From positions 1 through 48,655 of IMG/VR virus record IMGVR_UViG_3300009502_000072: 48,655 nucleotides of DNA. The stretch is one strand, 5' to 3'. The notes beneath the pieces are model-generated. The model did not search any database. It saw only the letters and a program-made list of their open reading frames with translations, and was not told the origin of the DNA. A program made the translations under genes and the position numbers. The DNA comes from a virus. Taxonomy: Duplodnaviria > Caudoviricetes. Positions 33 to 47,979 of the stretch are shown piece after piece (positions within the stretch are counted from its first letter, which is position 1; every line of letters begins with the position of its first letter).

Positions 33-905
33 TTGAGTGCCTTCAACACTGCCGGTGGACTGCAGACTCAAGCCACCGACTACGGTCGGCAAGCCAGTGG
101 TCTCGCGCCACAGGATATTGCAATGGGTAATGCTGGTGCTGGTGCGGGGTTTTCCTATGGGCAAAACGCGACCAATCCGAATGCCGTGCAGGCGTACATG
201 AATCCCTACCTGCAATCGACCCTGCAACCGGCGATGCAGTTGCTGAACCAGCAATACAACCAGCAGGGCGCATACGAGCAGGGCGCTGCGACCAACGCAG
301 GAGCATTTGGCGGGTCACGCGAAGCGCTGATGCAAGGTTTAAACAACCAGAACCGCGACCTCGCTTCGAATCAGCTTGTCAGCAACGCCTACAACCAAGC
401 CTACAACACCGCCAATCAAAACATGCAACAGGCATCCAGCCTTGGCATGCAGGGGGCGCAGACCGGCATTGCTGGTTTAAACGCAGCAAATGCCTCATAT
501 GGGACTGGGATTTCTGGCGTGAATGCAGCCACGGGTGCAGGTCAATACGGATTGCAGGGTCTTGGTCAGGCTGGGCAGGCGGCAGCAACCCTCGGGGCGC
601 TTGGGCAGACCCAGTACACCCAGCAGCAGGGTATCAATCAGGCGATGCTGGGCGCTGGCGCTCAACAGCAGAATCTACAGCAGCAGGGTTTAAACACCGA
701 TTACGGTCAGTACCAGCAACAGCTTCAGTACCCCTATCAGCAGCTTTCGTTCATGCAGGGGATGTACAGCGGCTTGCCAATGAGCAATACTGCGACCAGC
801 ATGTACCAGAACCCCAGTGCCGTCTCTCAGGTGGCGGGTCTCGGTACGGCAGGCATTGCCGGTCTGGGCTTGTACAACACCATGAACAAAGCGCCCGGAA
901 CGTAA
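33..905 (+). CDS. Putative DNA pilot/ejection protein (probably 5'-truncated by the window edge)
   Basis: G/Q/A-rich protein with 'YMNPY' and 'GAFGGSR' motifs and a C-terminal 'QYPYQQLSF...G' segment, typical of podovirus internal proteins; first of three tandem ejection-type genes. Confidence 0.65.
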   Translation: MSAFNTAGGLQTQATDYGRQASGLAPQDIAMGNAGAGAGFSYGQNATNPNAVQAYMNPYLQSTLQPAMQLLNQQYNQQGAYEQGAATNAGAFGGSREALMQGLNNQNRDLASNQLVSNAYNQAYNTANQNMQQASSLGMQGAQTGIAGLNAANASYGTGISGVNAATGAGQYGLQGLGQAGQAAATLGALGQTQYTQQQGINQAMLGAGAQQQNLQQQGLNTDYGQYQQQLQYPYQQLSFMQGMYSGLPMSNTATSMYQNPSAVSQVAGLGTAGIAGLGLYNTMNKAPGT

Positions 906-914
906 GGAGCCACC

Positions 915-2966
915 ATGTCGATCACAAATTTAAACAGCCTGATGGCGTCGGCAGAAAACCTGTCCGACGACCAGATCAAGCAGTCTGTCTCCAACGGCGT
1001 CCTCCCTGCGTACATCGGAACCTCGGTCTTGGAAGCGCGGTACAAGATGCAGAACGAGTCCAAGCAGGCGCAGCAGCGCCCGACCGTCATGCAACAGGTT
1101 TTCAACAAGGCACCGCAGCAACCGCAGATGGCACAACAGGCGATGCAGCCGCAGCAGCAGATGCCGCCGCAGCAACCCGCTGGCATCGACCAGATGCAAT
1201 CGAACATGCCGCAGATGGCGCGTGGCGGGATCGTGGCGTTCGCCGATGGCGGCGAGATCGATGATGATTTCGATCCGGATGAGTACAACGAATCCGTTGA
1301 TGACGCCGAATACTCGGAGCAGATGCAGCGCGTCTTGGAAAACCATGCCATCGCCGCAGGTCTCGGAAGTCGTGTAAATGACACGCCGAGGGTCGAGGGC
1401 GGGATCAGCCTGCCGTCAGGGGCGCATGGCGTCCAACCGCAGGGCAAAGATTTCTACCGCGCACTGCATGGCGAATTGCTCGCCAAAGCCAAGGAGATGG
1501 GCGCAGCCAACCCCGAAGCGATTGCGGCGCTTGGCGCTGCACAGTCGGCGCTGGAAACTGGATATGGTAAGCACCTTGCCGGTGGCAACAACTATTTCGG
1601 CATCAAGGGTAAGGGTTCCTCCCAGTCGACGCAGGAATATGACCCCGCGACCGGCAAAATGGTCACGATCAAGGACAGCTTCCGCCAGTACGGGAACATG
1701 GGCGACTCCGCAGCGGACTACGTCAAATTCCTGCATGAAAACCCCCGCTACGCAGGCATCCTCGCCGCCAAGACGCCCGAGGAAGCCATCCAGCTTCAGG
1801 GCAAGTCTGGTTATGCAACCGACCCGCAGTACGGGCAGAAGCTTGCTTCCATCCACCAATCGAATCAGATGGCAAGTGGCGGCATCGCCATGCTGGCTGG
1901 CGGCGGGAGGGTTCTTGGATACGCTGGAACTCCAGATATTGGAAGTCTTGTGCAAGGGGAACTTGCAAGTCAGGATGTCACCCAACAAGGTCTTGGGTCG
2001 TCTGCGTTTATGCGCGGAGAAACGGGTGGTCGAGCATCACTTGCTTACCGCCGTCCACGCGCTGGTCATAACGGCCCCCCCGTCCCGACGGCTCCGTATG
2101 ACGACCCTGCGTCAGCCGATTTCATTACCCCTTCGGGAGACCTTCCCGCGCCGGGGGCAAAGCCACAGCCCGACGCCGCTCCGCTTGGAGAAGGCGTTGA
2201 CCCGACAGACATCAGCGCAGCCCTTGCCGGTATGCCAAACAAAACGACCGCTCCCACTAAACCGGTCGATAGCGCGTTACCAACCGACATCGGTGGTACG
2301 AAAGCGCCTGCGACCAAGTCCGAATACGACAATTTCATCGAACGCATGATGGGCGAACATGAAGACATCAAGAAGCAACGCGAGATCGACAACTACATGG
2401 CGCTGATGATGGCGGGTCTCGGCGCTGCCGGTGGCACCTCCCCCAACGCCCTGTCGAACATCTCGCAGGGTGCGATGTCCGGTCTTGCTTACAAGCAAGG
2501 CGCGGAGAAGAATCGTGCCGCCGAACAGAATGCGCTTAATAAGAGCATCCTCTCTGCCAACCGCTACAAGGGCATGGAAGAACTCGCTCGCGACACGCGC
2601 AACCTGACCGACCAACAGCGCCGTGATTCGATGGGCGAGCGTGGTCGAGAGGCTGACCAGACGCTGGCGTTCAACCAGCACAAGCTTCTGAGCGAAGAGA
2701 TCGCCAAGCGCCAGACGCAGATCGAAAACCTCGTCACCAAGCAGTACAACCCCAGCATGGATATGAGCCAGATGACGCCGGACATACAGCAAAGGATACA
2801 AGCTGAAACGGCGCGTAGGATTGCTAGCGATGACTGGCTGAGAGATCGCTATAACCTGCTTGCTGGCATAACCAAGAGGGCATATGGCATTGAAATGACC
2901 CCGCCCGACTATGGTGCCGCCGCTACTGCTCCGCATTACGATCCGAAAACCAAAACATGGCGATAA
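915..2966 (+). CDS. Internal virion protein with GH73 (FlgJ-type glucosaminidase/muramidase) domain
   Basis: Motifs AQSALETGYG, NNYFGIKG, FRQY and YATDPQY at about 1500-1860; SD AAGGAG upstream. Confidence 0.85.
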   Translation: MSITNLNSLMASAENLSDDQIKQSVSNGVLPAYIGTSVLEARYKMQNESKQAQQRPTVMQQVFNKAPQQPQMAQQAMQPQQQMPPQQPAGIDQMQSNMPQMARGGIVAFADGGEIDDDFDPDEYNESVDDAEYSEQMQRVLENHAIAAGLGSRVNDTPRVEGGISLPSGAHGVQPQGKDFYRALHGELLAKAKEMGAANPEAIAALGAAQSALETGYGKHLAGGNNYFGIKGKGSSQSTQEYDPATGKMVTIKDSFRQYGNMGDSAADYVKFLHENPRYAGILAAKTPEEAIQLQGKSGYATDPQYGQKLASIHQSNQMASGGIAMLAGGGRVLGYAGTPDIGSLVQGELASQDVTQQGLGSSAFMRGETGGRASLAYRRPRAGHNGPPVPTAPYDDPASADFITPSGDLPAPGAKPQPDAAPLGEGVDPTDISAALAGMPNKTTAPTKPVDSALPTDIGGTKAPATKSEYDNFIERMMGEHEDIKKQREIDNYMALMMAGLGAAGGTSPNALSNISQGAMSGLAYKQGAEKNRAAEQNALNKSILSANRYKGMEELARDTRNLTDQQRRDSMGERGREADQTLAFNQHKLLSEEIAKRQTQIENLVTKQYNPSMDMSQMTPDIQQRIQAETARRIASDDWLRDRYNLLAGITKRAYGIEMTPPDYGAAATAPHYDPKTKTWR

Positions 2967-2972
2967 CCAATC

Positions 2973-5900
2973 ATGCAGACTGTGAACATCTCGGGGTTTG
3001 GGCCGATGAACTTTCCGGACGAAATGTCCAAGGAAGAAATTCAAGCTGCCATTGACAACGACATCTATCCAAAGCTGCAACAAGCAAAAGAAAAGCCCGA
3101 CACCGGATTCACGGGCGCTATGAAGTCGTCCTTCGCAAAGATGAAGGGCGAAGCAGCGCTGACCGCCGGTAAAGTTGGGCTGATCAATCCAGACACAGCG
3201 GAAAACTTCCATCAGGAACAGGAAGCTGAAGCCAAGCGTGTGTTTAAACCAACCGAGGAAGGTTGGCTGCAAGCGCCGTGGCAGAACTTCAAGGAAACCC
3301 TTGGCGGCTCATTGCCGTACATGGCAGCACCGCTGGTTGCCGGTGGTATTGGAACTGCTGCCGCTGGCGCTGCCCCTGCTGTTCTGGGCGGAACCCTCTT
3401 GGGCGCTGGTCTGGGAACCCTTGGTGCCTTCGGCGCTGGTGCCGCGCAATTCACTGGGTCGAACCTTGCCCGTCAAATGGATGAGGGCAAGTCATACCAA
3501 GACGCCGATGTCGCCAATGCCGCTCTTGCGGCGCTGCCACAGTCCGCCTTGGATACCCTGTCGCTGCACATGATCCCCGGCATCAGCCGGATCTTTGGTC
3601 AGGCAGGCAAGAAGATCACACAAGCTGAAGCCAAACGCATCGCCGAGCAGGGACTTCTCGCCACCACCGGTAGCTGGGCATTGAAGACCGGCAAGACGAT
3701 GGGCATTGAGGGCGGCACCGAAGCCGCCCAACAGGTGTTTGAACGCCTGCAGGCACACCTGAGCCTGACCGATGAAAAGGCAAAGCAGGAATATTTCGAC
3801 AACTTCATCGGCGGTGCCGTCCTTGGTGGCGTACTGGGTGGCTTCGGTCACATGGTCTCGCGCCCCGAGGTGATGCCAAACAAGCCCGAGGTCGAGGGCG
3901 GGCAGCTTCAGGAAGGGTTTCTCAATCCTCCGGAAGGAGGAATCCCTCCTGCCCCTCCCGCTGGCACTCCTCCTGCCGGTCAGTTTCTCAACTCCGAAGA
4001 AGCCCGATTCGCAGAACAGCAGCGTCGTTTAAACAAGCTTGGAGAGGGTGCGCCCGTCGCACCGGAAGCCGCGCTGCCGAGCAACGTCAACCCTGTCACT
4101 CCGTCACAGGTTCCACCTCGGATTCCCACCGCGCCGCTACAAGCCGATCAAATGGCTCGCCGCATAGATGAGCATGCCAAGCTTCTACAACAGGCTCAAA
4201 ACGAGCCGGTTGCAGCCCAAAGGCAAGCCTTGGAGGCAAAAGCTGCCCAGTTGATTGGCGAGCAGCAATCTGGGGTGCCTGCCGCCCAGCTTCTCTCCAT
4301 GCAGCCACTGAGCCTGACCGAAGCCCGACAGGTCGTCGGGATGGCACAGAATGGTTTCCAGCACCCGATGCTTGGGAGCCAAGAGGTAAACCCGAGCGAA
4401 CTGCACATCGTTCCGCATCCGTCGACCCCCAATGCGTTTGCCATTGAGCAGCGCGGCGTACCGGAGGCGTACCGCACCCGCGAGCAGGCACCGCAGCCCA
4501 TGACGGCAGCGCAGGCTACCCAGCGCATTGAGGAAGCCAAACCCGCAGAGCGCGATGTCGCACGGCAGCAGGATGAGCAGGGGCGTCAAGCCATGATCAC
4601 CCGCGCCATGCAGAACATTGAGGCGCGAAATGGCGTTGCCAGCCCACAGGAAGCGGAGACTCTTCGCGCCGCCGGTCTCGGTCAGCCCTACAACAGGATC
4701 GACCCCAACCTTGCCCCCAAGGGAACAGTTGACCAACAGTTGACCGATGCCACCGGCATCCAACTTCAGAACCGTCCTCGTGAGTCGGGATCTGTCGGCG
4801 CTGCCCAGACTTCCGCCCAGCAAGCTGCCGACCAGCAGCAACAGCAACAAATGAACGCCGCACAGGAATCCCGTGGCTGGGAAGAACGTGCTGCCGCCCG
4901 TCAGGCGGAGCAGGCTTCGCCCATCCCCGAGTCGACCGCCCCCGCTGCGCCAGATCCCCGCGCCGTCATCGATGCCTACAATACCCCGCCTGCTTTGCGC
5001 AGTGCGGCACAGGTCGCCCTGCTCAACATCGCGAAGAACCGGATCAACCCATCCGATCTCAGCGCCCTTCAGATGGTGGGCGAGGAAGGCGCAAGCCTGC
5101 CCCACACGATGGAGCGAATCCAGCGCCAGCTTGGCTCACCCGAAGCGCCTGCCGCCAAGGTCGAGTCGACCCCAGAGCAGCAGACCGTCATGTCCGCGCT
5201 GGAGACCACGGGTTCCATGCGTACCGCAGAGCAGACCTCCCTTGTCAATAAGGCGCGTGAACTGCTGGGCGAGGACGAGGTCAAGAAGCTGGAGAAGACC
5301 GCCCGTCAGCGCAAGGCTCGCCGCACCAAGTACAGCCTTGCCGAGGAATCCACGGTTCCGGAAGAAAACCGAGCCAAGACCGAAGAGGCAGGCAAGAAAC
5401 TGGTCGCTGCGCTTAAACGGTTTGGTCTGGAGCGCGTTGGACTGCGGATCGTCAAGTCCATACTGGACGGTGCTGCCGAAGCCTCCTTCGCGAATCGCAT
5501 CATCAACATCGCCATGAACGTGAATGACCCGATGGGGGTCATGCGCCATGAAGCCATCCACGCTCTCAAGGAGATGGGTGCCTTCACCGATGCCGAATGG
5601 AAGATGCTGACCGATCAGGCGCGGAACAAGTGGATCAAGGAATACATCAGCCCGAAGCGCATGGAGGAATACCAGCAGGTTTATGCCGAAGAGAACGGCA
5701 ACCTCGACGGTTTTGACGAGTACATCGCCGAGGAAGCCATCGCGGATGCGTTCCGCGACCACGGCAACATTGCTGGCGCTCCGCGCACCCTGATGAACCG
5801 CATCGCCAGCCTGCTCAAGGCGATCAGGAATGCCTTCAATGGTCAGGGGTTCAAGACCGCCGAGGACATCTTCCGAGGTATTGAGCGTGGAGAGTTCAAG

Positions 5901-8900
5901 CCAGACAGCTGGAAAGCCACGCCAGAAGACCGTGTTCAGGCTCGCGAGTACGAGCGTGTAAACGGAATAGCGCCATACCTGTCAGAGGGCCAGCTTGCAG
6001 TTCCTGCGACCGGCGTCCGGTATGCAATCAAGGGTTCCTACACCGACAAGCAGATCCAAAAGAAGAACGCGAAACTCAAGACCGAGGGCGAGTACGGCAA
6101 CCATCCTGTGTTTGGCATTCCGATGAACGCCAACGGAACGGTGACGCTTTACGTCCCAACCAACGGTGAAATGGCTCGCCGCATCGCCAACGAGAAGAAG
6201 CTGTTTGGAGACACACCTGAGTCCAACCGCATCTACCTGACCAACGAATCCGATGGTCAGGCGGTGATGAAGAACCCCGGCGTCATTGCCCATCGCATGG
6301 ATGGCGCAAACGTGCTGGTGCAGGTCGATCCGTCATGGCTGGAATTGGAAGCCGAGCATGCCGATGGTCGTAAGGACTTCTCCATCGTGATTGCCGAGGG
6401 TAACGCCTTCGCCAAGAAGATGGCGCAGACCAAGATGTTCACCCTGTTTGCAGATCGCAACAAGGGTATCTCCAAGACTGCAACATTCAATTCCATTGGC
6501 AATGGCATCACCAAGGGCGTTGATGCCTACCGTGCCATGTCGACCAAGGAACAGGCTGCACGTTTAAAGCAGGCAAAGGATTTGCTTCGCGCCGAACATA
6601 ACGTCGGCATCCTGCTGACAGAGAATGGCAAGCTGCAGAAGAGCCGTCTCGGCGAGTTCAACCTCAAACAGGACGGCAACAGCATTGCGTCGATGGGTCT
6701 TGGGCTGGCGTCTGCCCAGAAGATCAACGACAAGCTGTCAACGTGCATCAACTCTGCTAGATGCGAAGGGCTGTGCCTTGGTGAAACTTCTGGTCAGAAC
6801 CTTCTGTACGGCGGCGAGGGATCGTTCAGGGCTGGCCCACGCCTGTCGCAATACCTCAAGACCGAGGCGATGGTCATGCACCCCGAGGAATTCGGGATCG
6901 CGCTGTACGCCGAGATTGAGTCACTGCGTAAATGGGCTGCGAAAGAGACCGGCACAGAGTCGGTCAAGGTTGAGGAATCGGACAAGAAGGTCAAGGTTCC
7001 AAAGCAGGTCTATGAGCCTGCCATTCGTTTAAACGTGACCAGCGATTTCCCACCGCCAGTATTTGAGTCGATCATCCATGCGTTCTCATCTCCGGAGAAG
7101 CGTGTGAATTTCTACGACTACACCAAATTGAACACCAAGTCGATTGGCGACAATCACCATTTGACCTATTCCTCAACTGGTGCTTTGCAGCGAGTCGGTA
7201 ACAAAGTCGTCGGGCTGGCGCGTTCGAAGTCTGGTGAGGTCACCACGCCGAACTGGGACGACATGCAAAAAAAGCTGGATCGCGGATTCAATGTGGCGAT
7301 GGCGTTCTCCGACAAGAAGCACATGCCCAAGTTCGTCGTGGACGAAAAGAGCGGCAAGAAGTACCAAGTTTGGAACGGCGACCTCTACGATGCGCGGTAT
7401 CTCGACCCGAAGCGCGAGGATGGCGTTGGCATGATCGTTGGTCTGACCAACAAGGATCGCACCGGCAATCCCGCTGAGTCGCCTGTGCGACACAACGGCT
7501 TCTTCGTTGCCTACAACCCGAAGACCGATGGAGACACGGTCACCATTGAGGATCAGGAGAAGCTTGCCAAGGAAGCAGAGAAGACCCTGCCGCCCGTTGA
7601 GCATAAGGTTGGCATGCCGGGAAAGGCGAAGTACTCGCTCGCGCAGCAAAAAAAAATCATGGGCGAAGCCTCATGGTCTAAGGATCGCATCAACAAACTG
7701 ATCAATGAATACGCCTACACCAATGATGAGGCTGACACGAAGGCATATGCAACCTTCATGTCCCCGCAGCAATTGCTCAACATCAGCACCAACAAAAAAT
7801 ACCAGAAAGATGTTTTAGAGAAGGAAAACAAACCCCTCGACACTGATAAGCTGACCTCTTACGGTTACCCGATGTGGATTGACGTTAATCCAGATTCATT
7901 CGGCGGAGGAAGAATTACAGCCACCGGTCATGAAGGCCGTCATCGCATGATGGCGCTACGCGATGTAGGGGTCGACAAAGTTCCAGTGGTGATCAAATAT
8001 GGTCGTCGCCAGAGAGATGCGAAGCCAATCAAGCAGATGTTGATTGATAGACAAAACACGGGTCATGAAGGTTCTTATGTCGAGAACATGATCCCCATCT
8101 CGTACAAGTACGCGAAGGAACTAAACGAAGTGTTCGGCAACCCCGACGCGCAGGTTCGCTTCTCGCTCGCCCATCACAACACGCCTGCGTTCAAAAACTA
8201 CTTCGATGGCAGCAAGATCGTCAACGAGGACGGTTCGCCATTCGTCCTGTATCACGGCACTGGAAGTGACATCCACCATTTCATTCCTTCGGAAGACGGG
8301 ATGATGGGGAGGGGCATTTACATGAGTGGCGATTCAGACTACGCCAGTCATTATGCAAACCACAAAGAGAATGGCAACGTGGTTCCGGTGTACGCATCGA
8401 TCAAGAACCCGTACTACATTGAGCGAGATCCGAAAGCCAAGAACAAATACATGGCAAGTCCATTTGTTTCTGGGTTTGTCGACAAGGACAATATCTTTGG
8501 CGGCAGACGCGTAATGGATCTGAGCGGCAACCAGATCCGTAACGCCTTCAAGAAAGCTGGCTACGATGGGATCGTGCTGCGCGATGCAACGCATCCGTTC
8601 ATTGAGGTAGTTGCGTTCGATGCGCCGCAGATCAAGTCCGCCATCAGCAACACCGGCAAGTATGGCAAGGACAAGAAGATCCGCTACTCGCTGACCCAGT
8701 CGACCCCGCAAGTCAGCGCCGGTAAAGCGATGGTCAATGCCGTCTCGGACATGTACGACTCCATCCGCGATGGCAATGCCCGTACCTCATGGCGCAATGG
8801 CTGGGTTGATTCCAACTCCAGCTTGGCGAAAGCCCTGTCGCCGAACCCACTGTTCAACCACGCCGATGGAACCCTTCGTGCCGACATGATCAACCATGCC

Positions 8901-11411
8901 AAGGCACAGACGATCAACTTCGTTCGCAACGCATTGCTGACCGGTCAGCCCATCGTCAACAATGATGGCACCCTCGGGGTTCATATCACCGACAAGAACC
9001 TGTCGACCGCAGTCAAGAAGGCAGATAGTTTAAACGCAGAGGCACAGCGCCTTGGCTACACCGATGGTCGCCACATGGTGGCAGAGGTTGCTCGAGCATT
9101 GCGCGGCGAGGACATCCTTCAGGAGGACGTAGCCCGTCGTGCGAAGGCGCAGCAGGATCTGGCGGATGCTCGCAACATGTTCACCCAAGTGCGTGGCATG
9201 CCGATGAACCAGACCCGTGCCAACATCTTCAACCAGATCAAGGAAATGCGCCGCAAGGCACAGCAGGAACTGAAGCTTAACCGCGAGAAGATGGTCAAGC
9301 CTGCCGACATCGCGCAGGCGCATTCGACCTTGCAGGCTGTGCCGCAGATTCAGGAGGTTCTGGACATATGGAAGGATGTGAATGATTCCCTGATCGATCT
9401 ATGGCATACCGTTGGTCTGCTTGATGTTACCCGTGCCGATGAACTGAAGTCGCACAAAAACTACGTCCCGCTGTTTAAATCAGCCGATGACCTTGAGGAG
9501 ACCGATTACTTCCAAGGGTCGGGAACTGGTTTGAAGTCAACCGCGAACCTCCAGAAGCTGAAGGGTGGGACGCACAAGACCAACATCTGGGAAAACGTGG
9601 ACAAGCATTTCGCTCGCATGATCGCGAATGCCTACGAGAACCAGTCGCGCCGCATTGCCATCCAGCAACTGGGTGCCTTGAACCTTGCCACGATCACCAA
9701 TGACCCGAACGACAAGCGGATCAACCTGAAGTTCAAGATCGACGGCAAGGATGTAAATGCCATTGCCCATAACCCGAACGATGTGGCTGGGTTCCAGATG
9801 ATGCAGTATGAGTTGAATCCGGTCATGAAGATGTTCTCGGGCGCAACCAAGCTGCTGCGGATCGGCGCACTGGTCAACCCGATGTTCTGGATCAAGCAGT
9901 TGATTCGCGACCCCATACACGCATCGTTGGTCGCAGGAACGGGCATCGTGACGCCGTTCCAGTCTGCGGCGCATTTCTTCTCTATCTTGGCGAACAAGTC
10001 CGAGGGCGCGAAAGTGCTTGCCCGTCATGGTGTGATTGGTCAGTACGACAGCACCGTGTCGATCCATGAGTACCTCGACAACGTCGGCAAGGCGCATGCC
10101 CCCACGGGCAACATGAGCAAGCTGATGAGCAAGGTCATGGAAATCCATGAAGCATCGGATGCCGCCACCCGTGTTGCGATCTATGAGCAGGTCAAGAAGA
10201 AGGCGCTGGCTGAAGGCAAGAGCGAAGAGGACGCGACCAACTTCGCCGTGTTTAAAGCACGGGAGTCGATCAACTTCGCCGTGCATGGCAACTCCCCGAT
10301 CCTGCGCAACCTGCGCATGATGGTTCCATTCCTGTCGGCGCAGATCACTTCGCTCGACACGGTGTATCGCGCCCTGACCGGCAAGAACCTCAGTCCGGAC
10401 GAAAAGGCTGAAGCCAAGGCGATGTTCATCTCCCGCGCCCTGATGCTGACAGCACTGAGCGTTGCCTACGCCGCGATGTATCAGGATGACGACGAGTACA
10501 AAAAGCTTCCCGACTACGTCAGGGACAACAACTGGCTGATCCCCACCACCGATGAAACCGGTCGCAAGACCTTCATCAAAATCCCGACCCCGTTCGAAGT
10601 CGGGTTCCTGTTCAAAACGCTGCCAGAAGCGTCGATCAGGTATTTGAGCCAGAACAGTACGGGCAAGGAAGTTATCGCCTCCTACCTCGGCGGTTTAATC
10701 CACAACCTGCCTGCCAACGGTATCCCTGTCCCGCAGGTCATCAAGCCTGCGCTTGAGACGATCACCAACTTCTCGTTCTTCAACATGGCTCCGATTGAGT
10801 CGCTTGGGGATCAGGGGCTGGCGACCAACATGCGCGGCAGGAACGCGACCGAGTTCTCCCGCATGCTCAGTACGATGGGGCTGGACAAGCTGGGCTTGTC
10901 ACCGGTCAACATCGACTACATCGCGCAGGGCTACCTCGGTGAACTGGGCATCTTCTCGCTGGTGGCGGCAAGCCAGATGGCGGACGCTACGACTGGCAAG
11001 CAGTCGCCCACTTTAAACAGCGAGCAGATGACGTTCCTCAAGTCGTTCATGACCGACCCTGCGGTGCAGAAAGGGGTCTCGGACTTCTACAACGTCGACC
11101 ATGCGGCGCGACAGATCGTGACCAGCTTCAACAACCTGAAGAAGACTGGCAGGCTGGACGAGGCGCAGAAGATGCTGGATGAACCGGAGACCAAGCAGGC
11201 GATCTTCGGGGAGAAGGCTCTACGCAAGTTCTCCGAGAACATGACTAAGCTGCGCAACCAGATTGAGTTCGTCAAGAACAGCAAGGACTTGACCCCAGAT
11301 CAGAAGCGCGATCAGGTCAATTTGTTAAACGACAAGTTCGACCAGATGGCACAACAAGGGTATCAATTCGCCAAGTCCGTTGGGCTTGAGAAATCATTCA
11401 GCATGAGGTAA
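2973..11411 (+). CDS. Large polyvalent virion-ejected protein (zincin peptidase, Gp88-like, ParB-like, ART-like and LPD38-like regions)
   Basis: HEAIH...EEAIADAF (~5550-5750); CINSARCEGLC...IRLNVTSD...FYDYTK...HLTYS...GDLYDAR (~6700-7500); EGRHRMMAL...KVPV (~7930-7990); LYHGT...GRGIYMS...PVYASIKNP...GYDGIV...QIKS (~8180-8670); KIPTPFEVG (~10580). Confidence 0.85.
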   Translation: MQTVNISGFGPMNFPDEMSKEEIQAAIDNDIYPKLQQAKEKPDTGFTGAMKSSFAKMKGEAALTAGKVGLINPDTAENFHQEQEAEAKRVFKPTEEGWLQAPWQNFKETLGGSLPYMAAPLVAGGIGTAAAGAAPAVLGGTLLGAGLGTLGAFGAGAAQFTGSNLARQMDEGKSYQDADVANAALAALPQSALDTLSLHMIPGISRIFGQAGKKITQAEAKRIAEQGLLATTGSWALKTGKTMGIEGGTEAAQQVFERLQAHLSLTDEKAKQEYFDNFIGGAVLGGVLGGFGHMVSRPEVMPNKPEVEGGQLQEGFLNPPEGGIPPAPPAGTPPAGQFLNSEEARFAEQQRRLNKLGEGAPVAPEAALPSNVNPVTPSQVPPRIPTAPLQADQMARRIDEHAKLLQQAQNEPVAAQRQALEAKAAQLIGEQQSGVPAAQLLSMQPLSLTEARQVVGMAQNGFQHPMLGSQEVNPSELHIVPHPSTPNAFAIEQRGVPEAYRTREQAPQPMTAAQATQRIEEAKPAERDVARQQDEQGRQAMITRAMQNIEARNGVASPQEAETLRAAGLGQPYNRIDPNLAPKGTVDQQLTDATGIQLQNRPRESGSVGAAQTSAQQAADQQQQQQMNAAQESRGWEERAAARQAEQASPIPESTAPAAPDPRAVIDAYNTPPALRSAAQVALLNIAKNRINPSDLSALQMVGEEGASLPHTMERIQRQLGSPEAPAAKVESTPEQQTVMSALETTGSMRTAEQTSLVNKARELLGEDEVKKLEKTARQRKARRTKYSLAEESTVPEENRAKTEEAGKKLVAALKRFGLERVGLRIVKSILDGAAEASFANRIINIAMNVNDPMGVMRHEAIHALKEMGAFTDAEWKMLTDQARNKWIKEYISPKRMEEYQQVYAEENGNLDGFDEYIAEEAIADAFRDHGNIAGAPRTLMNRIASLLKAIRNAFNGQGFKTAEDIFRGIERGEFKPDSWKATPEDRVQAREYERVNGIAPYLSEGQLAVPATGVRYAIKGSYTDKQIQKKNAKLKTEGEYGNHPVFGIPMNANGTVTLYVPTNGEMARRIANEKKLFGDTPESNRIYLTNESDGQAVMKNPGVIAHRMDGANVLVQVDPSWLELEAEHADGRKDFSIVIAEGNAFAKKMAQTKMFTLFADRNKGISKTATFNSIGNGITKGVDAYRAMSTKEQAARLKQAKDLLRAEHNVGILLTENGKLQKSRLGEFNLKQDGNSIASMGLGLASAQKINDKLSTCINSARCEGLCLGETSGQNLLYGGEGSFRAGPRLSQYLKTEAMVMHPEEFGIALYAEIESLRKWAAKETGTESVKVEESDKKVKVPKQVYEPAIRLNVTSDFPPPVFESIIHAFSSPEKRVNFYDYTKLNTKSIGDNHHLTYSSTGALQRVGNKVVGLARSKSGEVTTPNWDDMQKKLDRGFNVAMAFSDKKHMPKFVVDEKSGKKYQVWNGDLYDARYLDPKREDGVGMIVGLTNKDRTGNPAESPVRHNGFFVAYNPKTDGDTVTIEDQEKLAKEAEKTLPPVEHKVGMPGKAKYSLAQQKKIMGEASWSKDRINKLINEYAYTNDEADTKAYATFMSPQQLLNISTNKKYQKDVLEKENKPLDTDKLTSYGYPMWIDVNPDSFGGGRITATGHEGRHRMMALRDVGVDKVPVVIKYGRRQRDAKPIKQMLIDRQNTGHEGSYVENMIPISYKYAKELNEVFGNPDAQVRFSLAHHNTPAFKNYFDGSKIVNEDGSPFVLYHGTGSDIHHFIPSEDGMMGRGIYMSGDSDYASHYANHKENGNVVPVYASIKNPYYIERDPKAKNKYMASPFVSGFVDKDNIFGGRRVMDLSGNQIRNAFKKAGYDGIVLRDATHPFIEVVAFDAPQIKSAISNTGKYGKDKKIRYSLTQSTPQVSAGKAMVNAVSDMYDSIRDGNARTSWRNGWVDSNSSLAKALSPNPLFNHADGTLRADMINHAKAQTINFVRNALLTGQPIVNNDGTLGVHITDKNLSTAVKKADSLNAEAQRLGYTDGRHMVAEVARALRGEDILQEDVARRAKAQQDLADARNMFTQVRGMPMNQTRANIFNQIKEMRRKAQQELKLNREKMVKPADIAQAHSTLQAVPQIQEVLDIWKDVNDSLIDLWHTVGLLDVTRADELKSHKNYVPLFKSADDLEETDYFQGSGTGLKSTANLQKLKGGTHKTNIWENVDKHFARMIANAYENQSRRIAIQQLGALNLATITNDPNDKRINLKFKIDGKDVNAIAHNPNDVAGFQMMQYELNPVMKMFSGATKLLRIGALVNPMFWIKQLIRDPIHASLVAGTGIVTPFQSAAHFFSILANKSEGAKVLARHGVIGQYDSTVSIHEYLDNVGKAHAPTGNMSKLMSKVMEIHEASDAATRVAIYEQVKKKALAEGKSEEDATNFAVFKARESINFAVHGNSPILRNLRMMVPFLSAQITSLDTVYRALTGKNLSPDEKAEAKAMFISRALMLTALSVAYAAMYQDDDEYKKLPDYVRDNNWLIPTTDETGRKTFIKIPTPFEVGFLFKTLPEASIRYLSQNSTGKEVIASYLGGLIHNLPANGIPVPQVIKPALETITNFSFFNMAPIESLGDQGLATNMRGRNATEFSRMLSTMGLDKLGLSPVNIDYIAQGYLGELGIFSLVAASQMADATTGKQSPTLNSEQMTFLKSFMTDPAVQKGVSDFYNVDHAARQIVTSFNNLKKTGRLDEAQKMLDEPETKQAIFGEKALRKFSENMTKLRNQIEFVKNSKDLTPDQKRDQVNLLNDKFDQMAQQGYQFAKSVGLEKSFSMR

Positions 11412-36033: not shown

Positions 36034-36062
36034 ATTGTCAATCCATTTAAACAGTAGTGCAA
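36034..36062 (-). promoter_or_regulatory. Candidate promoter for the leftward AAA+/vWA operon
   Basis: TTGCAC-17 bp-GACAAT on the - strand; spacer contains GTTTAAAT. Confidence 0.45.
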
Positions 36063-37537: not shown

Positions 37538-37566
37538 TTGACAAGGTTTAAACGCTTGTGCAGAAT
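37538..37566 (+). promoter_or_regulatory. Sigma70-type promoter with GTTTAAAC in the spacer
   Basis: TTGACA-17 bp-CAGAAT. Confidence 0.6.
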
Positions 37567-37845: not shown

Positions 37846-37863
37846 ACAAAACGCTTTGTAGTA

Positions 37864-38282: not shown

Positions 38283-41200
38283 GCGATATTCTTACCGCCG
38301 AGGAACTTCGGCAGTACGCCAAGCTTCTGGAAATCCTCCCGAAGGGTTCTCCCAACATCGACCGTGTCAGGCAGTTGCTGGAAAATGACCGCATCGCACG
38401 GTGCAAGGACAACTTCCTTCCCTTCGTCCAGTCGATGTGGCCCTCCTTCATCTCAGGGAGGCACCACAAGATCATGGCTGATGCGTTTGAACGCATCGCC
38501 AACGGAACGCTCAAGCGCCTGATCATCAACATGTCACCTCGGCACACCAAGTCGGAATTTGCCTCCTACCTGCTGCCAGCATGGTTCCTCGGAAAATACC
38601 CCGAGAAGAAAATCATCCAGACCGCCCACACCGCAGAACTCGCCGTGGGCTTCGGGCGCAAGGCGCGTAACCTCATCAACAGCATCGATTACCAGACCGT
38701 CTTCAAGACCAAACTCTCGACCGACTCCAAAGCCGCAGGTCGCTGGAACACCTCCGCAGGCGGCGATTACTTCGCCATCGGCGTCGGCGGTGCCGTCACT
38801 GGCAAGGGCGCTGACCTCCTGATCATCGATGACCCTCATGCACTACCATTGGATACGGCGGTTCCAACACCACAAGGATTTAAGACTATTGGTGATTTAG
38901 TTATTGGTGATAGTGTGTATGGCCCGGACGGGCTACCGACGCGGGTTATCGCGAAGTCCACGGTATGCAGAGACCGGGAGTTATTTGCTGTCACGACCGA
39001 TGATAACGAGGTTGTGTACTGTGACGGAGGACATCTTTGGTCATACCACTCTGAGACTGCACTAAAAAACTCACATATTATAAAAACATCTACGGCGCGG
39101 GAATTAGCCAATTGGGACAAACCTAATAAGCCCTATTTGCCCCGGCACTACGCTGTTCAATACTCAGAAGCGGATCTTCCGATTGACCCGTATGTCCTTG
39201 GTGCGTGGCTCGGAGATGGGACAAGTAGCCTTGGAAGAATGACAGCACATCCTGATGATGCCTTGTTTATGCGTACTCAGTTTGAGGCGGCAGGGTATGA
39301 GGTGACTGATCTGAAGAGCGTGTATTCGTTTGGCATCCCCAAATTACGTGGGCAGTTACGAGACCTCGGGGTACTAAATAACAAGCACGTACCGACACCC
39401 TATCTGCAATCTTCTGTATCCCAACGCTTAGCACTTCTTCAGGGAATGATGGATACTGACGGGGATGTTACAGAAGCGGGGCAGTGCAACTTCAATAATA
39501 CAAATAAAGAACTTACTCTGGCTGTTTGTGAGTTGGTGCATAGCCTTGGGGTGAAAGCGAAGATTCACCGCTACGAAGATAGCCGGGTTAACTGTAGCCC
39601 TATATACCGGGTTACGTTCAAGCTTAAAGACGCATGTAGGATGCCACGTAAGCAGATCAGGACGTTTACCCCAACGGACAAGCGGCGGCGCTCGTTTACC
39701 GTGTCCAGAACAGATCGGTGTGCTGATGTACAGTGCATAACTGTTGAGCGGGAAGACGGGCAGTTTCTTGTCGGGCGCGGGTACGTCGTGACACATAACT
39801 CCGAACAGGAGGCGATGCAGGGTAATCCCGAAGTCTATGACCGAGTCTATGAGTGGTACTCGTCGGGGCCTCGCCAGCGCCTGCAGCCGGGGGGGGCAAT
39901 CGTCATCGTCATGTGCATGACAGGCGATACGCCTGTTCTGATGTCAGACGGATCTTCCACTGAACTCAGGCACATCCGCAATGGGGATTCCGTAGCTACC
40001 TATGACTACGAGAAAGGATTGTTCACCACATCAACCGTCAATAATTGGCAGTCAAGTGGTGTTGATTCCATATATACAATACAAACACGATCTGGCAGAA
40101 CACTCCGTGCAAACGAGGATCATCCTTTTCTCGTTGATTTAAACGGAGATCGTTCATGGATAAAGCTGAAAGACCTACAGGTGGGGATGTCTCTTGTAGC
40201 AATGAGTGGTGTACAAGACCAGCCAGATCACAAACAAAGCCCGGACTATGTGCTGCTTGCCAAGCAAGAGCCAGCTACCACAGGAAACATCCAGACGCGC
40301 CCTACCACCCAGATGGATACCACGGGAAATGGAAAGGAGAAACTTGCTGCCAATGCGACAAGCCAGCAGCAATCAAAAGCCTCTGCAAATCTTGTTACAC
40401 CAAGCAATACGACCCTCCACCCAGCACCGCAGAACAGCGCAGAGCCAGAAGGATCAAGAGCAGATACGGGATCACTAGCGAAGCGTATGACAGAATGGTT
40501 GCAGAGCGCAGCAACCGCTGTGATGTCTGTAGTGAGCCACCTTCTGAGAAAAACACTCGCGCCCACTGGAACGGGAAACTCTGTATCGACCACGACCACA
40601 GCACAGGAGTTGTCAGAGGATTGCTCTGCAACAATTGCAATCTCGCAGTTGGATATGGAGAAACCCCAGAAAAATTGCACAGAGCCGCTGAATACCTACA
40701 GCGTTTCGCTGGATCAGATAGTTGACATAACACCATGCGGCGAAGAAGAGGTATTTGATATTGAGGTTGATAGGACTGGTAACTTCATTGCCAACGGGGT
40801 TGTCAGTCACAATACCCGCTGGAGCAAGAAAGACCTGACCGGTCAAATCCTCTCCAACTCCATCAAGCGCGAAGGCGATGAGTGGGAGGTCATCGAATTC
40901 CCCGCCATCATGCCCAGCGGCAAGCCGCTGTGGCCCGAATTCTGGAGCCAGAAGGAACTGGAGGCGATCAAGGCTGAGATCCCCGTCAGCAAGTGGAACG
41001 CCCAGTACCAGCAAAACCCCACCTCGGAAGAGGGCGCGATCATCAAGCGCGACATGTGGAAACGCTGGAAGGAAGAAAAGGCTCCCCCCTGCGATTTCAT
41101 CATCCAAAGCTGGGACACCGCCTTCGAAAAGAACTCCCGCGCCGATTACTCCGCCTGCACCACTTGGGGAGTCTTTGGTCGTTTAAACGACAGGGGTGGA

Positions 41201-41653: not shown

Positions 41654-44131
41654 ATGGCAATCGAAAAAAGCTTGTACCAAGCACCGCAGGGAACGACCGA
41701 GGTCGACCCCGTTGTCATGGACTTCGAAATAACAGAGGACGGCAAGCCATCCGAGGAAATCGAAGTCGAGATAATTCCCGATCCGTTCGATGAAAACCTC
41801 ATTGACCGTCTTGACGCATCCTATGTCGGAACCCTTGCCACCGAACTGCTCTCCGACTTCGACGACGATGTCAACTCGCGTAAAGACTGGCTCGACACTT
41901 ACGTCGACGGGCTTGAACTCCTCGGGTTGAAAATGGAGGAGCGCACCGAACCGTGGGAAGGCGCATGCGGGATTGTCCATCCGCTCCTCACGGAAAGCCT
42001 GATCCGGTTCCAAGCCGAGACGGTTATGGCGATCTTCCCCGCAGAGGGGCCGTGCAAGACGAAGATCCGAGGCAAGGAGACACAGGAAAAGAAGGAAGCC
42101 GCGCAGCGTGTGCGCGACGACATGAACTACAAGCTGACGGAGCAGATGACCGAGTTCCGCCCAGAAATGGAACGTGCCATCTGGGGTCTGGGTCTTTCGG
42201 GAAACTCCTTCAAGAAGGTCTACAAAGACCCTTCCCTCAAGCGCCAGACATCGATCTATGTCACCGCCGACGATGTGGTTGTCCCGTATGGAACCACAGA
42301 CCTTCAGTCGGCGCAGCGCGTCACGCACGTTATGCGCAAGTACAAGAACGACCTGCGCAAGCTTCAGGTATCGGGCTTTTACGCAGACATCGATCTGGGC
42401 GATCCGGTCAACACGCTGGACGAGGTTGAAAAGAAAATCGCCGAAAAGCTTGGGTTCAGGGCTACCAGCGATGACCGCTACAAGCTGCTGGAGATGCAGG
42501 TCAACCTTGATCTGCCGGGGTTCGAAGACAGGGGCGAGGATGGCGAAATGACGGGCATCGAACTGCCCTACATCGTCACCATCGAAAAGAATACCGCCAA
42601 GGTCTTGGCGATACGCCGCAACTGGGTCGAGGGCGACGAGACATTTGCCAAGCGCCAGCACTTTGTTCACTACGGCTATATACCCGGCTTCGGGTTCTAC
42701 CACCTTGGTCTGATCCACATCATCGGCGCGTATGCAAAGTCAGGCACCTCCATCCTGCGCCAGTTGGTCGATGCTGGGACGTTGGCAAATCTCCCCGGCG
42801 GCTTTAAGACTCGCGGCATGCGTACCAAAGGCGACGACACGCCCATCGGCCCCGGCGAGTGGAAGGATGTCGACGTTGCCTCCGGAGTCCTAAAAGACAA
42901 CATCATGCCGTTGCCCTACAAGGAACCGAGTCAGGTTCTGGCGGCATTGCTCGACAAGATCATCGAAGAAGGTCGACGGTGCGCCAATACCGCAGACATC
43001 AACATCTCCGACATGAGCGCACAAGCGCCGGTAGGCACGACGATGGCGCTGCTGGAGCGAACCCTCAAGGTGCTGACCGCAGTGCAGGCGCGTACCCACT
43101 TCTCGCTCAAGAACGAACTGAAACTCCTCAAGTCAATCATTGCCGAGGATGCCCCAGACACATACGACTACGATCCGGAGACAGGCAACCGCTCCGCCAA
43201 AAAGTCCGACTACAACGATGTCGATGTCATCCCAGTCTCCGATCCCAATGCCAGCACCCTTGCGCAAAAGATCATCCAGTACCAAGCGGCATTGCAGCTT
43301 GCCCAAGGCGCACCGCAGTTCTACAACATGCCGCTGCTGCACCGCCAGATGCTGGAAGTGCTGGGCTTGAAGGATGCGCAGAAGCTGATCCCGCTGCCCG
43401 AGGACATGAAGCCGGTCGATCCTGTCTCCGAGAACCAGAACATCCTCATGGCAAAGCCCGTCAAAGCTTTTGCCTATCAGGATCACAGGGCGCACATTAC
43501 CGTCCACATGTCAGCCATGCATGACCCACAGATTGCGGCAATGCTCGGGCAGACGCCGCAGGCGCAAACCTTGCAGGCATCGATGCAGGCGCACATCAAC
43601 GAACACTTGGGATTTGCGTATCGCGTCGAGATTGAGAAGCAACTTGGCTTCAACCTTCCGCCGATGCTCGACGAGATGGGAGACCCAAACCCAATCAATC
43701 CGGAACTGGAAGCCAAGCTTGCCCCCTTGCTTGCCACCGCAGCGACACAGCTGCTGCAGCAGAACCAAGGTCAGGCAGCGCAACAGCAGGCGCAACAACA
43801 GGCGCAAGACCCAATCGTCCAGCTTCAGCAAAAAGAACTGCAGATCAAAGAACTGGAAGTCGAGCGCAAGAAACTCAAGGATCAGGTCGACGCACAACTC
43901 AAGGAAAAGCAAATCGCCGTCGAGGAGAAGCGCGTGGACAATCAGGCGCGGGTCGATGGAATCCGCATCGGCGTTCAGGCAAAGAAAGATGCCACCGAGT
44001 TCAGGGGCAAACAGTTGATGGAAGGCGCTCGGATTGGTCTGGATGCCCAAAAACATCACAACGACATGCATGAGCGCATGGCTGACAAAATCAGCAGTTT
44101 AAACAGCGAGGAACCCAATGGAACTGATTAA
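41654..44131 (+). CDS. Portal protein
   Basis: Follows TerL; 825 aa; HPLL.E...FQA, PGFGFY.LGL, APVGTT.AL and Q-rich coiled-coil tail. Confidence 0.88.
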   Translation: MAIEKSLYQAPQGTTEVDPVVMDFEITEDGKPSEEIEVEIIPDPFDENLIDRLDASYVGTLATELLSDFDDDVNSRKDWLDTYVDGLELLGLKMEERTEPWEGACGIVHPLLTESLIRFQAETVMAIFPAEGPCKTKIRGKETQEKKEAAQRVRDDMNYKLTEQMTEFRPEMERAIWGLGLSGNSFKKVYKDPSLKRQTSIYVTADDVVVPYGTTDLQSAQRVTHVMRKYKNDLRKLQVSGFYADIDLGDPVNTLDEVEKKIAEKLGFRATSDDRYKLLEMQVNLDLPGFEDRGEDGEMTGIELPYIVTIEKNTAKVLAIRRNWVEGDETFAKRQHFVHYGYIPGFGFYHLGLIHIIGAYAKSGTSILRQLVDAGTLANLPGGFKTRGMRTKGDDTPIGPGEWKDVDVASGVLKDNIMPLPYKEPSQVLAALLDKIIEEGRRCANTADINISDMSAQAPVGTTMALLERTLKVLTAVQARTHFSLKNELKLLKSIIAEDAPDTYDYDPETGNRSAKKSDYNDVDVIPVSDPNASTLAQKIIQYQAALQLAQGAPQFYNMPLLHRQMLEVLGLKDAQKLIPLPEDMKPVDPVSENQNILMAKPVKAFAYQDHRAHITVHMSAMHDPQIAAMLGQTPQAQTLQASMQAHINEHLGFAYRVEIEKQLGFNLPPMLDEMGDPNPINPELEAKLAPLLATAATQLLQQNQGQAAQQQAQQQAQDPIVQLQQKELQIKELEVERKKLKDQVDAQLKEKQIAVEEKRVDNQARVDGIRIGVQAKKDATEFRGKQLMEGARIGLDAQKHHNDMHERMADKISSLNSEEPNGTD

Positions 44132-44748: not shown

Positions 44749-45684
44749 ATGCCCAGATTTGAAACCCCCGAATTCAAGTTTCCCGACGAAATCAACGGTC
44801 AATCGACCGAAGCCGACGTTCGGGAGCCGATTGAGGTCGTCATCGAAGACGACACGCCTGCCGATGACCGTGGCAGGGAACCCATGCCCGAGGACATCGT
44901 CAAAAAGCTGGAAGACGACGATCTTTCCAGCTACACCACCGACCAACGCGAGCGGTTTAAACAGCTGAAAAAGGTCTGGCACGACGAAAGACGCGCCAAA
45001 GAGGCTGCTTTGCGTGAGCAAAGCGAGGCTGTGACCGCAGCGCAACGAATTGCCGAGGAAAACAAGCGCCTGAAAGCCACGATTGACGCCGGTCGCACCG
45101 AATATGCCGAGGCATTGAAAAAAACGGCTGAAATCGAACTGGCACAGGCTCGGCGAGCCGCTCGCGAGGCTTATGACCTCGGCGATACGGACAAAATCCT
45201 CGACTCGCAGGAGCAGATCGCCAAGCTGACGGTTCAGCAGGAACGTGCGGCGCAAAACCAACAAGTCCCTTTACAACCCACCGGTAATCCGGTACAACAG
45301 TCTCAGAATTACCGTCCCGACGCCAAGGCGCTTGCGTGGCAAGAGCGCAATCAGTGGTTTGGCAAGGATGACGAGATGACTGCAAGTGCGCTTGGTCTCC
45401 ATGCGAAGCTGCAGAAGTCTGGAGTCACCCTCGGCTCGGACGCCTATTACGACGAATTGGACAAAACAATGCGTCGTCGCTTTCCAGAGTCATTTGGCGA
45501 GCCAGTACGGGAGCCTCAAGCAACTCCAAGAAAAACCGCAACGGTTGTTGCGCCTGCATCGCGAAGCACCGCGCCGAAACGCGTGTCATTGCGGCAGTCA
45601 CAAGTCGATCTCGCCCGAAAGCTTGGTCTGACACCGGAGCAGTATGTTGCTGAAGTCTTGAAACTGGAGTCCTCAAATGTCTGA
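44749..45684 (+). CDS. Putative capsid scaffolding protein
   Basis: Acidic N-terminus, coiled coil, W..RN.WF, C-terminal ARKLGLT.EQY; lies upstream of the capsid genes. Confidence 0.7.
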   Translation: MPRFETPEFKFPDEINGQSTEADVREPIEVVIEDDTPADDRGREPMPEDIVKKLEDDDLSSYTTDQRERFKQLKKVWHDERRAKEAALREQSEAVTAAQRIAEENKRLKATIDAGRTEYAEALKKTAEIELAQARRAAREAYDLGDTDKILDSQEQIAKLTVQQERAAQNQQVPLQPTGNPVQQSQNYRPDAKALAWQERNQWFGKDDEMTASALGLHAKLQKSGVTLGSDAYYDELDKTMRRRFPESFGEPVREPQATPRKTATVVAPASRSTAPKRVSLRQSQVDLARKLGLTPEQYVAEVLKLESSNV

Positions 45685-47001: not shown

Positions 47002-47913
47002 ATGGCAATTTCACGCGCACAGCTACTGAAAGAGCTGCTCCCCGGTCTGAACGCCCTGTTCGGTCTGGAGTACAAGCGATACGGCGAGGAACACAAGGAG
47101 ATCTACGAAACCGAGACCTCCGAACGTTCCTTCGAAGAGGAAACCAAACTCTCCGGGTTCTCCGCCGCGCCCGTCAAGAACGAGGGTCAGGCAGTCCAGT
47201 TCGACAACGCACAGGAAGCTTGGACGGCTCGCTACAACCACGAAACCATCGCGCTGGGCTATGCGATCACCGAAGAAGCAATGGAGGACAACCTCTATGA
47301 CTCTCTCTCGGCTCGCTACACCAAGGCACTGGCTCGTGCGATGGCGTACACCAAACAGGTCAAGGCTGCTGCCATCCTGAACAACGGCTTCTCGTCCGCC
47401 TTTACCGGCGGCGACGGGGTTGCACTGTTCTCGACGGCTCACCCGCTGGTCTCCGGTGGCGTCAATAGCAACACCCCCGCCACTGCCTCCGACCTGAATG
47501 AAACGTCGTTGGAAAACGCCGTCATCCAGATCGCTGGCTGGCAAGACGAGCGCGGTCTCCTGATCGCCGCCCGTGCCAAGAAGTTGATCGTCCCGCCTCC
47601 CCTGCAATTCGTTGCAACGCGCCTGCTTGAAACCAAGCTTCGCGTGGGTACGACGGACAACGACATCAACGCCATCGAAAACAACGGCTCGATTCCGGAA
47701 GGTTACGTTCAAAACCACTTCCTGACCGATACGAACGCTTGGTTTCTGACGACCGACGTTCCGAACGGCTTGAAGCACTTTGTTCGTGCGCCGTTGACGA
47801 CTTCGATGGACGGTGACTTCGACACGGGCAACGTCCGTTACAAGTCTCGCGAGCGCTACAGCTTCGGCTGGTCTGACCCGCTCGGCATGTTCGCGTCTCC
47901 CGGCGCGTCGTGA
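47002..47913 (+). CDS. Major capsid protein
   Basis: MAISRAQLLKELLPGLNALFG...K.EG....D...GGDG..L.S.AHP...RERYSFG.SD. Confidence 0.9.
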   Translation: MAISRAQLLKELLPGLNALFGLEYKRYGEEHKEIYETETSERSFEEETKLSGFSAAPVKNEGQAVQFDNAQEAWTARYNHETIALGYAITEEAMEDNLYDSLSARYTKALARAMAYTKQVKAAAILNNGFSSAFTGGDGVALFSTAHPLVSGGVNSNTPATASDLNETSLENAVIQIAGWQDERGLLIAARAKKLIVPPPLQFVATRLLETKLRVGTTDNDINAIENNGSIPEGYVQNHFLTDTNAWFLTTDVPNGLKHFVRAPLTTSMDGDFDTGNVRYKSRERYSFGWSDPLGMFASPGAS

Positions 47914-47923
47914 TGAAGTAAAG

Positions 47924-47952
47924 GAAACCCCGCTTCGGCGGGGTTTCTTCTT
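47924..47952 (+). terminator. Intrinsic terminator after the MCP gene
   Basis: GAAACCCCGC-TTCG-GCGGGGTTTC followed by TTCTT. Confidence 0.85.
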
Positions 47953-47979
47953 GCAGGTTTAAACAGACAGGAGTATAAA
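47951..47979 (+). promoter_or_regulatory. Sigma70-type promoter with GTTTAAAC in the spacer
   Basis: TTGCAG-17 bp-TATAAA. Confidence 0.6.

Follow-up and report, generated by a model that had tools for sequence, protein, structure and literature searches.

Why should a phage write one palindromic octamer, GTTTAAAC, over and over along its genome, even where this calls for rarely used codons? The question is raised by the IMG/VR record IMGVR_UViG_3300009502_000072, a 48.7-kb fragment (48,655 nucleotides; hereafter the window) of an HTVC023P/MinM2-like phage, whose capsid protein shows 73% identity to that of MinM2 and 66% to that of HTVC023P. The record is about 79% complete, and the DNA of this lake-water phage is present in lake and freshwater sequencing runs, with no RNA dataset carrying it among the matches listed. 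A preliminary description, made from the letters of the window alone, had proposed that the octamer (hereafter the word) is a dispersed recognition site. We find that the word is a genuine feature, is under selection and is linked to a single protein family, namely that of the SprT-like protein encoded on the minus strand at 34108..34713.

All 26 positions first reported for the exact word are correct and the window holds no further copies. Less than one copy had been thought to be expected by chance, and 100 dinucleotide shuffles indeed yield 0.29 (standard deviation 0.56, maximum 2); under an order-2 Markov model, too, the word is the top over-represented 8-mer of the window (26 versus 0.23). 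Within the curated genes, a set in which one small open reading frame (ORF) is mis-framed, the word is found 17 times, whereas 1000 synonymous-codon shuffles yield 0.28 (maximum 3), and hence the enrichment is independent of the protein sequence. To elaborate, 17 of the 23 peptide contexts of these genes that are able to encode the word do use it, and 11 of their 46 TTA codons lie inside it. The reading frames at the intragenic sites are as described earlier, G/R/S/C-L-N with TTA, or x-F-K-x. The single-mismatch variants listed at the outset are likewise present, and two pairs of them are clearly raised: ATTTAAAC/GTTTAAAT (8 versus 0.29 expected) and GTTTACAC/GTGTAAAC (5 versus 0.5). A purine follows 40 of the 52 half-sites, and the sites are spaced at a mean of 1.9 kb (coefficient of variation 0.76). 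The dinucleotide and codon shuffles, together with the use of in-frame chances, thus support the proposal that the word is selected as DNA, as a dispersed recognition site, and not via the protein sequence. Contigs from three of four runs (two studies, possibly the source samples) match the SprT-like gene and the site at 34728 letter for letter.

The enrichment also runs opposite to the norm for palindromes, as had been remarked. Many other palindromes are strongly avoided in the window, and restriction-type sites broadly so, with GGCC present 22 times versus 235 expected and CCAGG, GGACC, CGATCG, GCGCGC, CCATGG and GGATCC absent. This avoidance far exceeds that of most relatives and suggests a host rich in restriction systems.

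The tie between word and protein was examined from both ends. Starting from the gene, 133 of 134 loci bearing it are enriched for the word at P<1e-4, GTTTAAAC itself in 129 and a one-letter variant in the rest, in a sample that comes mostly from one clade and includes near-duplicates. All 13 near-whole genomes lacking the gene hold 0-2 copies of GTTTAAAC, counted over the first 40-60 kb for some records. By crude ORF calls, 58-83% of the in-frame chances to write the word are used in five gene-bearing genomes of the family, and 5 of 188 (6.8 expected) in the 13 gene-less ones. Starting from the word, a word-pair scan returned 131 loci, 80 of them listed; among 25 of the longest listed, searched with the family profile, 16 match it. 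Of six complete records chosen by the word alone, the three that are enriched all carry the SprT-like gene and the three without it fall below the threshold. The SprT-like gene is, moreover, the only gene of the window common to unrelated word-rich phages.

Cultured phages extend this picture. Fourteen cultured carriers were examined among 164 records with a homologue: nine are clearly enriched, one (ep3) weakly and four not. The word is GTTTAAAC in R5C (17 copies), Venkman (34), Alexa (8), Persinger (4) and Mano (4), and GTGTAAAC in Barnstormer (23), Powerpuff (27), Microdon (43) and 4A (12). The four carriers without the word, CN1, Epa5, Dismas and Armstrong, have tails that lack the zinc-ribbon signature QxTR[ML], and no substitute word was found in them beyond promoter- or ribosome-binding-site (RBS)-like repeats. 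The hosts of the carriers span Actinobacteria and three proteobacterial classes, and two phages of the same host, Microbacterium foliorum, differ: Percival has 14 copies and Dismas 0. In plasmids, of which 3 of 74 records were examined, the counts are 16 copies (26.5 kb), 2 copies (22.8 kb) and 6 copies (25 kb of a duplicated unit). Three plasmids have a copy of the word within the SprT-like gene proper (L360:20303, L361:20306 and L359:20413), and in two of these the gene adjoins parA-type, RHH and rep genes. The word is scarce in four gene-bearing bacterial genomes, with only 4-14 copies in 4.4-8.4 Mb; in one of them, a 4.5-Mb metagenome-assembled genome, all 4 copies lie on its two SprT-like-bearing contigs. 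Of the site types suggested at the outset, a host nucleoid or Chi-type site is therefore unlikely, given the paucity of the word in the carriers' genomes and the disparity between Percival and Dismas, and a genome-wide operator comes close to our best reading.

Among the relatives of the window phage the word is distributed by replication-module clade and not by capsid. Capsid relatives proved unsuitable as a test set, with only 3 of 80 loci enriched; the gene-less capsid relatives L017, L021 and L056 (G020) are enriched for different words, of the kind AATGTTA/ATTGTTAG. Site turnover was also considered, the preliminary description having asked whether relatives keep the motif at non-orthologous positions. 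This was not borne out: 33 sites in the primase gene (30 representatives) fall in 7 alignment columns, 21 of them in one, and many sites are thus orthologous.

The SprT-like protein has 201 residues, a zincin-fold domain and a C-terminal zinc ribbon; it belongs to phrog_6361 and its homologues are annotated as SprT-like proteases. Its predicted model (pLDDT 90) shows the zincin domain followed by a small cysteine-rich tail. The closest folds are abylysin (4jiu, Z 7.8) and SPRTN (6mdx, Z 7.7), middling scores with a root-mean-square deviation (rmsd) of 2.8-3.2 over 90-96 residues; Foldseek gave no match at E up to 0.001, and no solved structure was found by sequence. Pfam PF10263 is matched weakly by 27 of 44 homologues (E up to 0.1), and the first Atlas match is SprT-like at 0.98. 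A search of viral contigs with the single protein found nothing and an alignment-based search succeeded; a search for longer fused forms gave one match. The tail (residues 146-190, QGTRML...CPAC...R...W...C; 34144..34278, minus strand), the putative DNA-binding part, is matched by Atlas to PF17283 at 0.79 only, and modeled alone it reaches pLDDT 54. Its CxxC and distal Cys are conserved in the alignment of homologues, and Q154, T156, R157, M158, C163, R171, W176 and C184 are invariant in 44 of them.

The catalytic motif of the window copy is degenerate. In alignments, AQLCH (residues 88-92; 34438..34452, minus strand) takes the place of the family HExxH, with identical letters in contigs from three runs, and Tyr stands at residue 100 in place of the His that is the family's third ligand; two zinc ligands and the catalytic Glu are thus missing. 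HExxH is intact in most homologues and absent in 14 of 54 primase-found loci, as well as in the window and in G029. A quick tree needs five changes to account for these losses, at least three of them forced by well-supported branches. The word or a variant is kept in all HExxH-less loci except L112, which has a relaxed form; the degenerate copies show dN/dS of 0.05-0.26 (8 pairs), and the word density of loci with degenerate and intact copies is 1.29 versus 1.61 per kb (p 0.08). This repeated loss of HExxH with retention of the word suggests that protease activity is dispensable to the association, and we predict that the window copy binds DNA without catalytic activity. Further, four word-rich contigs encode only a tail-like protein of 55-60 residues, with the word just upstream in each. 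In an unrelated group of phages, where the word density is 1.3-3 per kb (L380, L402, L411, L418, L426, L441, L398, L403, L409 and L505), the proteins form a series that leads from an eroded protease domain to the tail alone.

On this basis we consider it likely that the zinc-ribbon tail reads the word, and, as the site is a palindrome, it probably does so as a dimer. The word shifts in places. Family members L104, L113 and L143 have moved to ATTTAAAC, and L112, L127, L130 and L140 to GTGTAAAC and relaxed forms; G029 has a relaxed word, NTTTAAAN, together with an R-to-N change in the tail. QPTR tails are paired with ATTTAAAC in two of two cases; with the single G029 case, this pairing is only suggestive of a residue code linking tail and word variant.

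Where the sites lie bears on what such binding might do. Eighteen of the 26 are wholly within ORFs, 17 of them in curated genes: in gene 33-905 (337..344, 475..482 and 688..695, all G-L-N); in the gene for a 2812-aa protein (3242..3249, V-F-K-P; 4027..4034 and 7027..7034, R-L-N; 9028..9035, S-L-N); in a minus-strand nuclease gene (11646..11653, C-L-N) and the minus-strand gene 18081-18497 (18275..18282, V-F-K-R); in gene 23093-23254 (23107..23114, A-F-K-R); in the primase-helicase gene (26926..26933, G-L-N); in genes 30261-30545 (30350..30357, T-F-K-R) and 31399-32571 (32071..32078, R-L-N); in the AAA ATPase gene (33591..33598, T-F-K-Q); and in TerL (41181..41188, R-L-N), the portal gene (44097..44104, S-L-N) and gene 44749-45684 (44955..44962, R-F-K-Q). 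The eighteenth is in the RusA-like ORF 24731-25207 (25143..25150, R-L-N), a label read from the sequence, with relatives carrying Pfam RusA. Two sites lie over stop codons. That at 34728..34735 covers the stop codon of the DUF6011 gene that lies upstream; it is 14 nt 5' of the SprT-like start codon and is a candidate autoregulatory site; that at 37840..37847 covers the stop of gene 37627-37845. The remaining six are otherwise outside the curated set: in the RBS-to-ATG interval of an Erf-like gene (22057..22064), directly 5' of the RBS of ORF 25656-25880 (25636..25643), at 29192..29199 and 29270..29277, between the capsid-gene hairpin and the next RBS (47957..47964), and at 37546-37553 in the spacer of a sigma-70-like promoter (TTGACA-17-CAGAAT, 37538..37566, plus strand) that precedes the LexA-like and TerL genes. 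A similar spacer placement is seen in L076 and L053. A near-match, ATTTAAAC at 36045..36052, lies in a possible leftward promoter of the SprT-like operon, read by eye and not called by the promoter scan.

Beyond the window, among 21 elements that do not belong to the main locus sets, 12 have the word within 100 nt upstream of the SprT-like gene, with 0.73 expected. In Powerpuff, 5 of 27 sites are at repeated promoter elements, right after the -10 hexamer, and in Barnstormer 8 of 23 are at such elements, in or at the spacer. Short gaps between the unoriented sites are fewer than random.

We advance the following mechanism, with about as much confidence for as against it: the SprT-like protein would be an unconventional repressor of its element's own transcription, with sites genome-wide. 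By binding the leader of its own gene and some promoters, the tail would block initiation, and the many unoriented intragenic sites might add a genome-wide brake that keeps the phage quiet. In temperate carriers this brake would amount to lysogeny; in the integrase-less family of the window phage it may instead support a carrier state or paced early expression. The intact protease, where present, might be an optional switch, for example through self-cleavage. The available text of PMC8758107 reports that Powerpuff, of cluster AZ, forms immune lysogens, and that no repressor has been identified in the AZ phages, which are temperate. As far as the consulted part of the AZ preprint (10.1101/2025.05.26.655371) goes, the SprT-like protein is among its listed repressor candidates, and Liebe, which has a truncated SprT-like copy, forms clear plaques and Maureen turbid ones.

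Several observations weigh against this repressor, or against the tail as the reader. All the support for binding and repression by the SprT-like protein is association. The SprT-like gene of Liebe encodes 163 residues and retains the tail, as the phage retains the word, and hence it is the N-terminal domain that the clear plaques would implicate; Liebe and Maureen also differ at three further positions. In the window phage's own family the word shows no excess upstream of the SprT-like gene (6 of 38 versus 4.8 expected), nor are sites at promoter-like sequences enriched across four genomes (4 of 209 versus 4.65 expected), with 1 of 31 in the window and 0 of 35 in Venkman. The -35 hexamer TTGCGC of the promoter scan was chosen after inspection of the data, and two Barnstormer matches take their -10 from the word's own letters. 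In genes of four genomes the asymmetric variant is found 47 times in sense and 29 times in antisense, at most a weak polarity. PHROGs and Pfam scans found no integrase in the window, and none was found in two complete relatives, of which 72 of 121 ORFs were scanned. Immunity repressors usually diversify, unlike this word, which is near-invariant across phyla. The link to the gene itself has exceptions: the complete genome G057 has 7 copies in 38 kb without a SprT-like gene (below the enrichment threshold), and the capsid-found fragments L030, L053 and L076 are word-rich with no SprT-like gene in the part available. The RHH, LexA-like, AAA and VWA genes also co-vary with the SprT-like gene, inside the family only. 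Lastly, the stand-alone tails match the family profile modestly (E about 1e-4; E 0.014 pairwise with the window protein), and the stronger tail profile included their own group.

The same reader might do another job. A protein coat at about one site per 1-2 kb could serve as a self-mark on the element's DNA, shielding it from host nucleases, translocating restriction enzymes or silencing proteins, either sterically or by tethered proteolysis. We regard this as a real though clearly lesser prospect than repression. It would sit well with the near-saturated use of available positions, with the roughly twofold abundance of encodable peptide contexts in gene-bearing genomes (1.7-2.4 versus 0.7-1.6 per 1000 aa), with the unoriented sites and their scarcity of short gaps, and with their highest density in the stretch that begins with the ejection genes and runs on across the early and replication genes. 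The near-invariance of the word across phyla, its presence with the gene on conjugative plasmids, the strong restriction-site avoidance in the window and the precedent of ArdC, described in the consulted text as an antirestriction protein with dispensable metalloprotease activity (PMC7213743), lean the same way. However, small elements keep 1-4 sites, often at the gene's own leader, which regulation fits better than coverage; gaps of 6.6-14.5 kb occur between sites, and no defence target was identified. A different job again, in which an SPRTN/Wss1-like protease is recruited by the word to clear crosslinked or stuck proteins from phage DNA, is in keeping with the SPRTN-like function predicted in the portion of the AZ preprint consulted (10.1101/2025.05.26.655371), the likeness to 6mdx (rmsd 3.2 over 96 residues) and the retention of HExxH in most homologues. 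The missing ligands and catalytic Glu of the window copy, the purifying selection on degenerate copies with similar word density, the tail-only forms and the reading of DNA structure, not sequence, by SPRTN in the consulted text of PMC7534798 make it improbable.

Other explanations dispense with a selected job for most sites, or with the SprT-like protein as the reader. Molecular drive has been proposed for uptake sequences and for HIP1; here, bound sites would bias recombination, repair or packaging, leaving the word a by-product with few functional operator copies. Near-saturation, the raised one-mismatch variants and the lack of promoter enrichment in the window phage's family would agree with this, but we found no biasing mechanism, and such a drive would have to outrun codon bias, given the rare TTA codons used; we deem it rather improbable. 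Equally so is a scenario with the SprT-like gene as a passenger and the word read by a host protein or another phage protein, such as the RHH protein at 20362, the LexA-like protein at 38052, TerS or the ejection protein. These phage genes co-vary with the word inside the family, and the few word-rich fragments and the mildly enriched complete genome that lack the SprT-like gene also speak for it. Yet unrelated word-rich phages have none of these candidate phage proteins, carrier chromosomes are poor in the word, phages of the same host differ in it, and the hosts span Actinobacteria and the three proteobacterial classes. The LexA-like, RHH and TerS proteins had been put forward early on as possible readers, but their profiles miss unrelated word-rich phages and match some word-less relatives. 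A ParB-like domain had also been claimed for the ejection protein, the probably ejected 2812-aa product of 2973-11411. PHROGs and Pfam give no such match, and the protein instead matches GP88, ART-PolyVal (an ADP-ribosyltransferase) and LPD38; likewise, none of the 72 window ORFs scanned with these databases matches a ParB family. The AAA, VWA, 219-aa helix-turn-helix (HTH)-like and DUF6011 proteins were also considered as readers and set aside, not being found in unrelated word-rich phages. That the word is a target for methylation or nicking appears least probable of all: it is a palindrome and coincides with the PmeI site, but no methyltransferase family was found by Pfam and PHROGs among the 72 ORFs of this incomplete record, and no nuclease gene is common to unrelated word-rich phages.

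How does a repressor with genome-wide sites compare with known systems? The nearest precedent is the repressor of Cluster A mycobacteriophages (L5 gp71, TipsytheTRex), which, in the text of PMC9283540 available to us, acts at operators and stoperators across the genome. As there, at least 20 sites, 26 in the window, are spread over the phage's own genome, some of them at promoters. In contrast to the 13-bp asymmetric Cluster A sites, which are oriented with transcription and placed in intergenic gaps, the word is 8 bp, mostly palindromic, weakly or not oriented, and mostly intragenic; its asymmetry is a one-base purine flank preference. The Cluster A reader is a monomeric protein with HTH and Stoperator domains, whereas the one proposed here is a zincin and zinc-ribbon protein, and the word system occurs in phages of several phyla and in plasmids. 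The window system thus falls outside the Cluster A stoperator class as described there, failing on site form, orientation, placement and protein fold.

The protein resembles SPRTN/Wss1 and the bacterial SprT family (PF10263; 6MDX) in its zincin fold, after which comes a small part that probably binds zinc. According to the consulted text of PMC7534798, SPRTN recognises DNA structure and is catalytic, whereas the window protein goes with a sequence word and no longer has HExxH, a motif lost repeatedly elsewhere too, and it belongs to a family in which tail-like forms stand alone. The SprT-like protease of cluster AZ/EH phages (Lizalica gp46) differs in keeping HExxH and in going with GTGTAAAC, and its carriers are temperate; in the window phage no integrase is seen. 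The part of the preprint consulted (10.1101/2025.05.26.655371) names no binding word for it. ArdC of plasmid R388 is likewise a mobile-element protein combining a DNA-binding part with a metalloprotease of dispensable activity, but it binds single-stranded DNA of any sequence and its domains come in the reverse order, as far as PMC7213743 could be consulted. We saw no sequence likeness between ArdC and the SprT-like protein.

HIP1 and the DNA uptake sequences are likewise short, and they fill nearly all the places that coding DNA offers them, despite codon bias; they are spread over entire bacterial chromosomes, and it is host systems that read them. In contrast, GTTTAAAC is confined to mobile elements that carry one gene, and, as Percival and Dismas illustrate, it tracks the phage gene, not the host. 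We found no published description of the link between word and gene in the literature searched, beyond whose reach lay most subscription papers.

Other features of the window complete the setting. Immediately downstream of the SprT-like gene lie the AAA ATPase, peptidase-like and VWA genes (30547-34098), which are conserved alongside it in the family. Between the SprT-like operon and terS, at 36170-36360, a cluster of DnaA-box-like 9-mers stands beside two near-match words; it is a possible host-DnaA origin, and clusters of 2-5 such boxes are also present in G029 and G033-G038. TerL (38279-41644) has intein and LAGLIDADG matches, the segment 25200-26380 is largely non-coding with several hairpins, and the window has no tRNA or Rfam match.

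A broader formulation, which we offer tentatively and hold less likely than not to be right in full, is that of a near-universal self-tagging module of mobile DNA. A zinc ribbon of about 50 residues would read a single 8-base word, spread through phages and plasmids of several phyla, and coat the element's own DNA to silence or shield it, with an SPRTN-like protease as an optional part, and would also be the missing repressor of the AZ/EH phages. If the proposed reading of the word by this protein is true, a widespread and uncharacterised family of phage proteins would gain a DNA target, and a protease scaffold would have been repeatedly reduced to a sequence-specific DNA binder. The identity of the immunity repressor in temperate cluster AZ/EH phages would become directly testable, and the word would furnish a sequence signature for spotting such elements in metagenomes.

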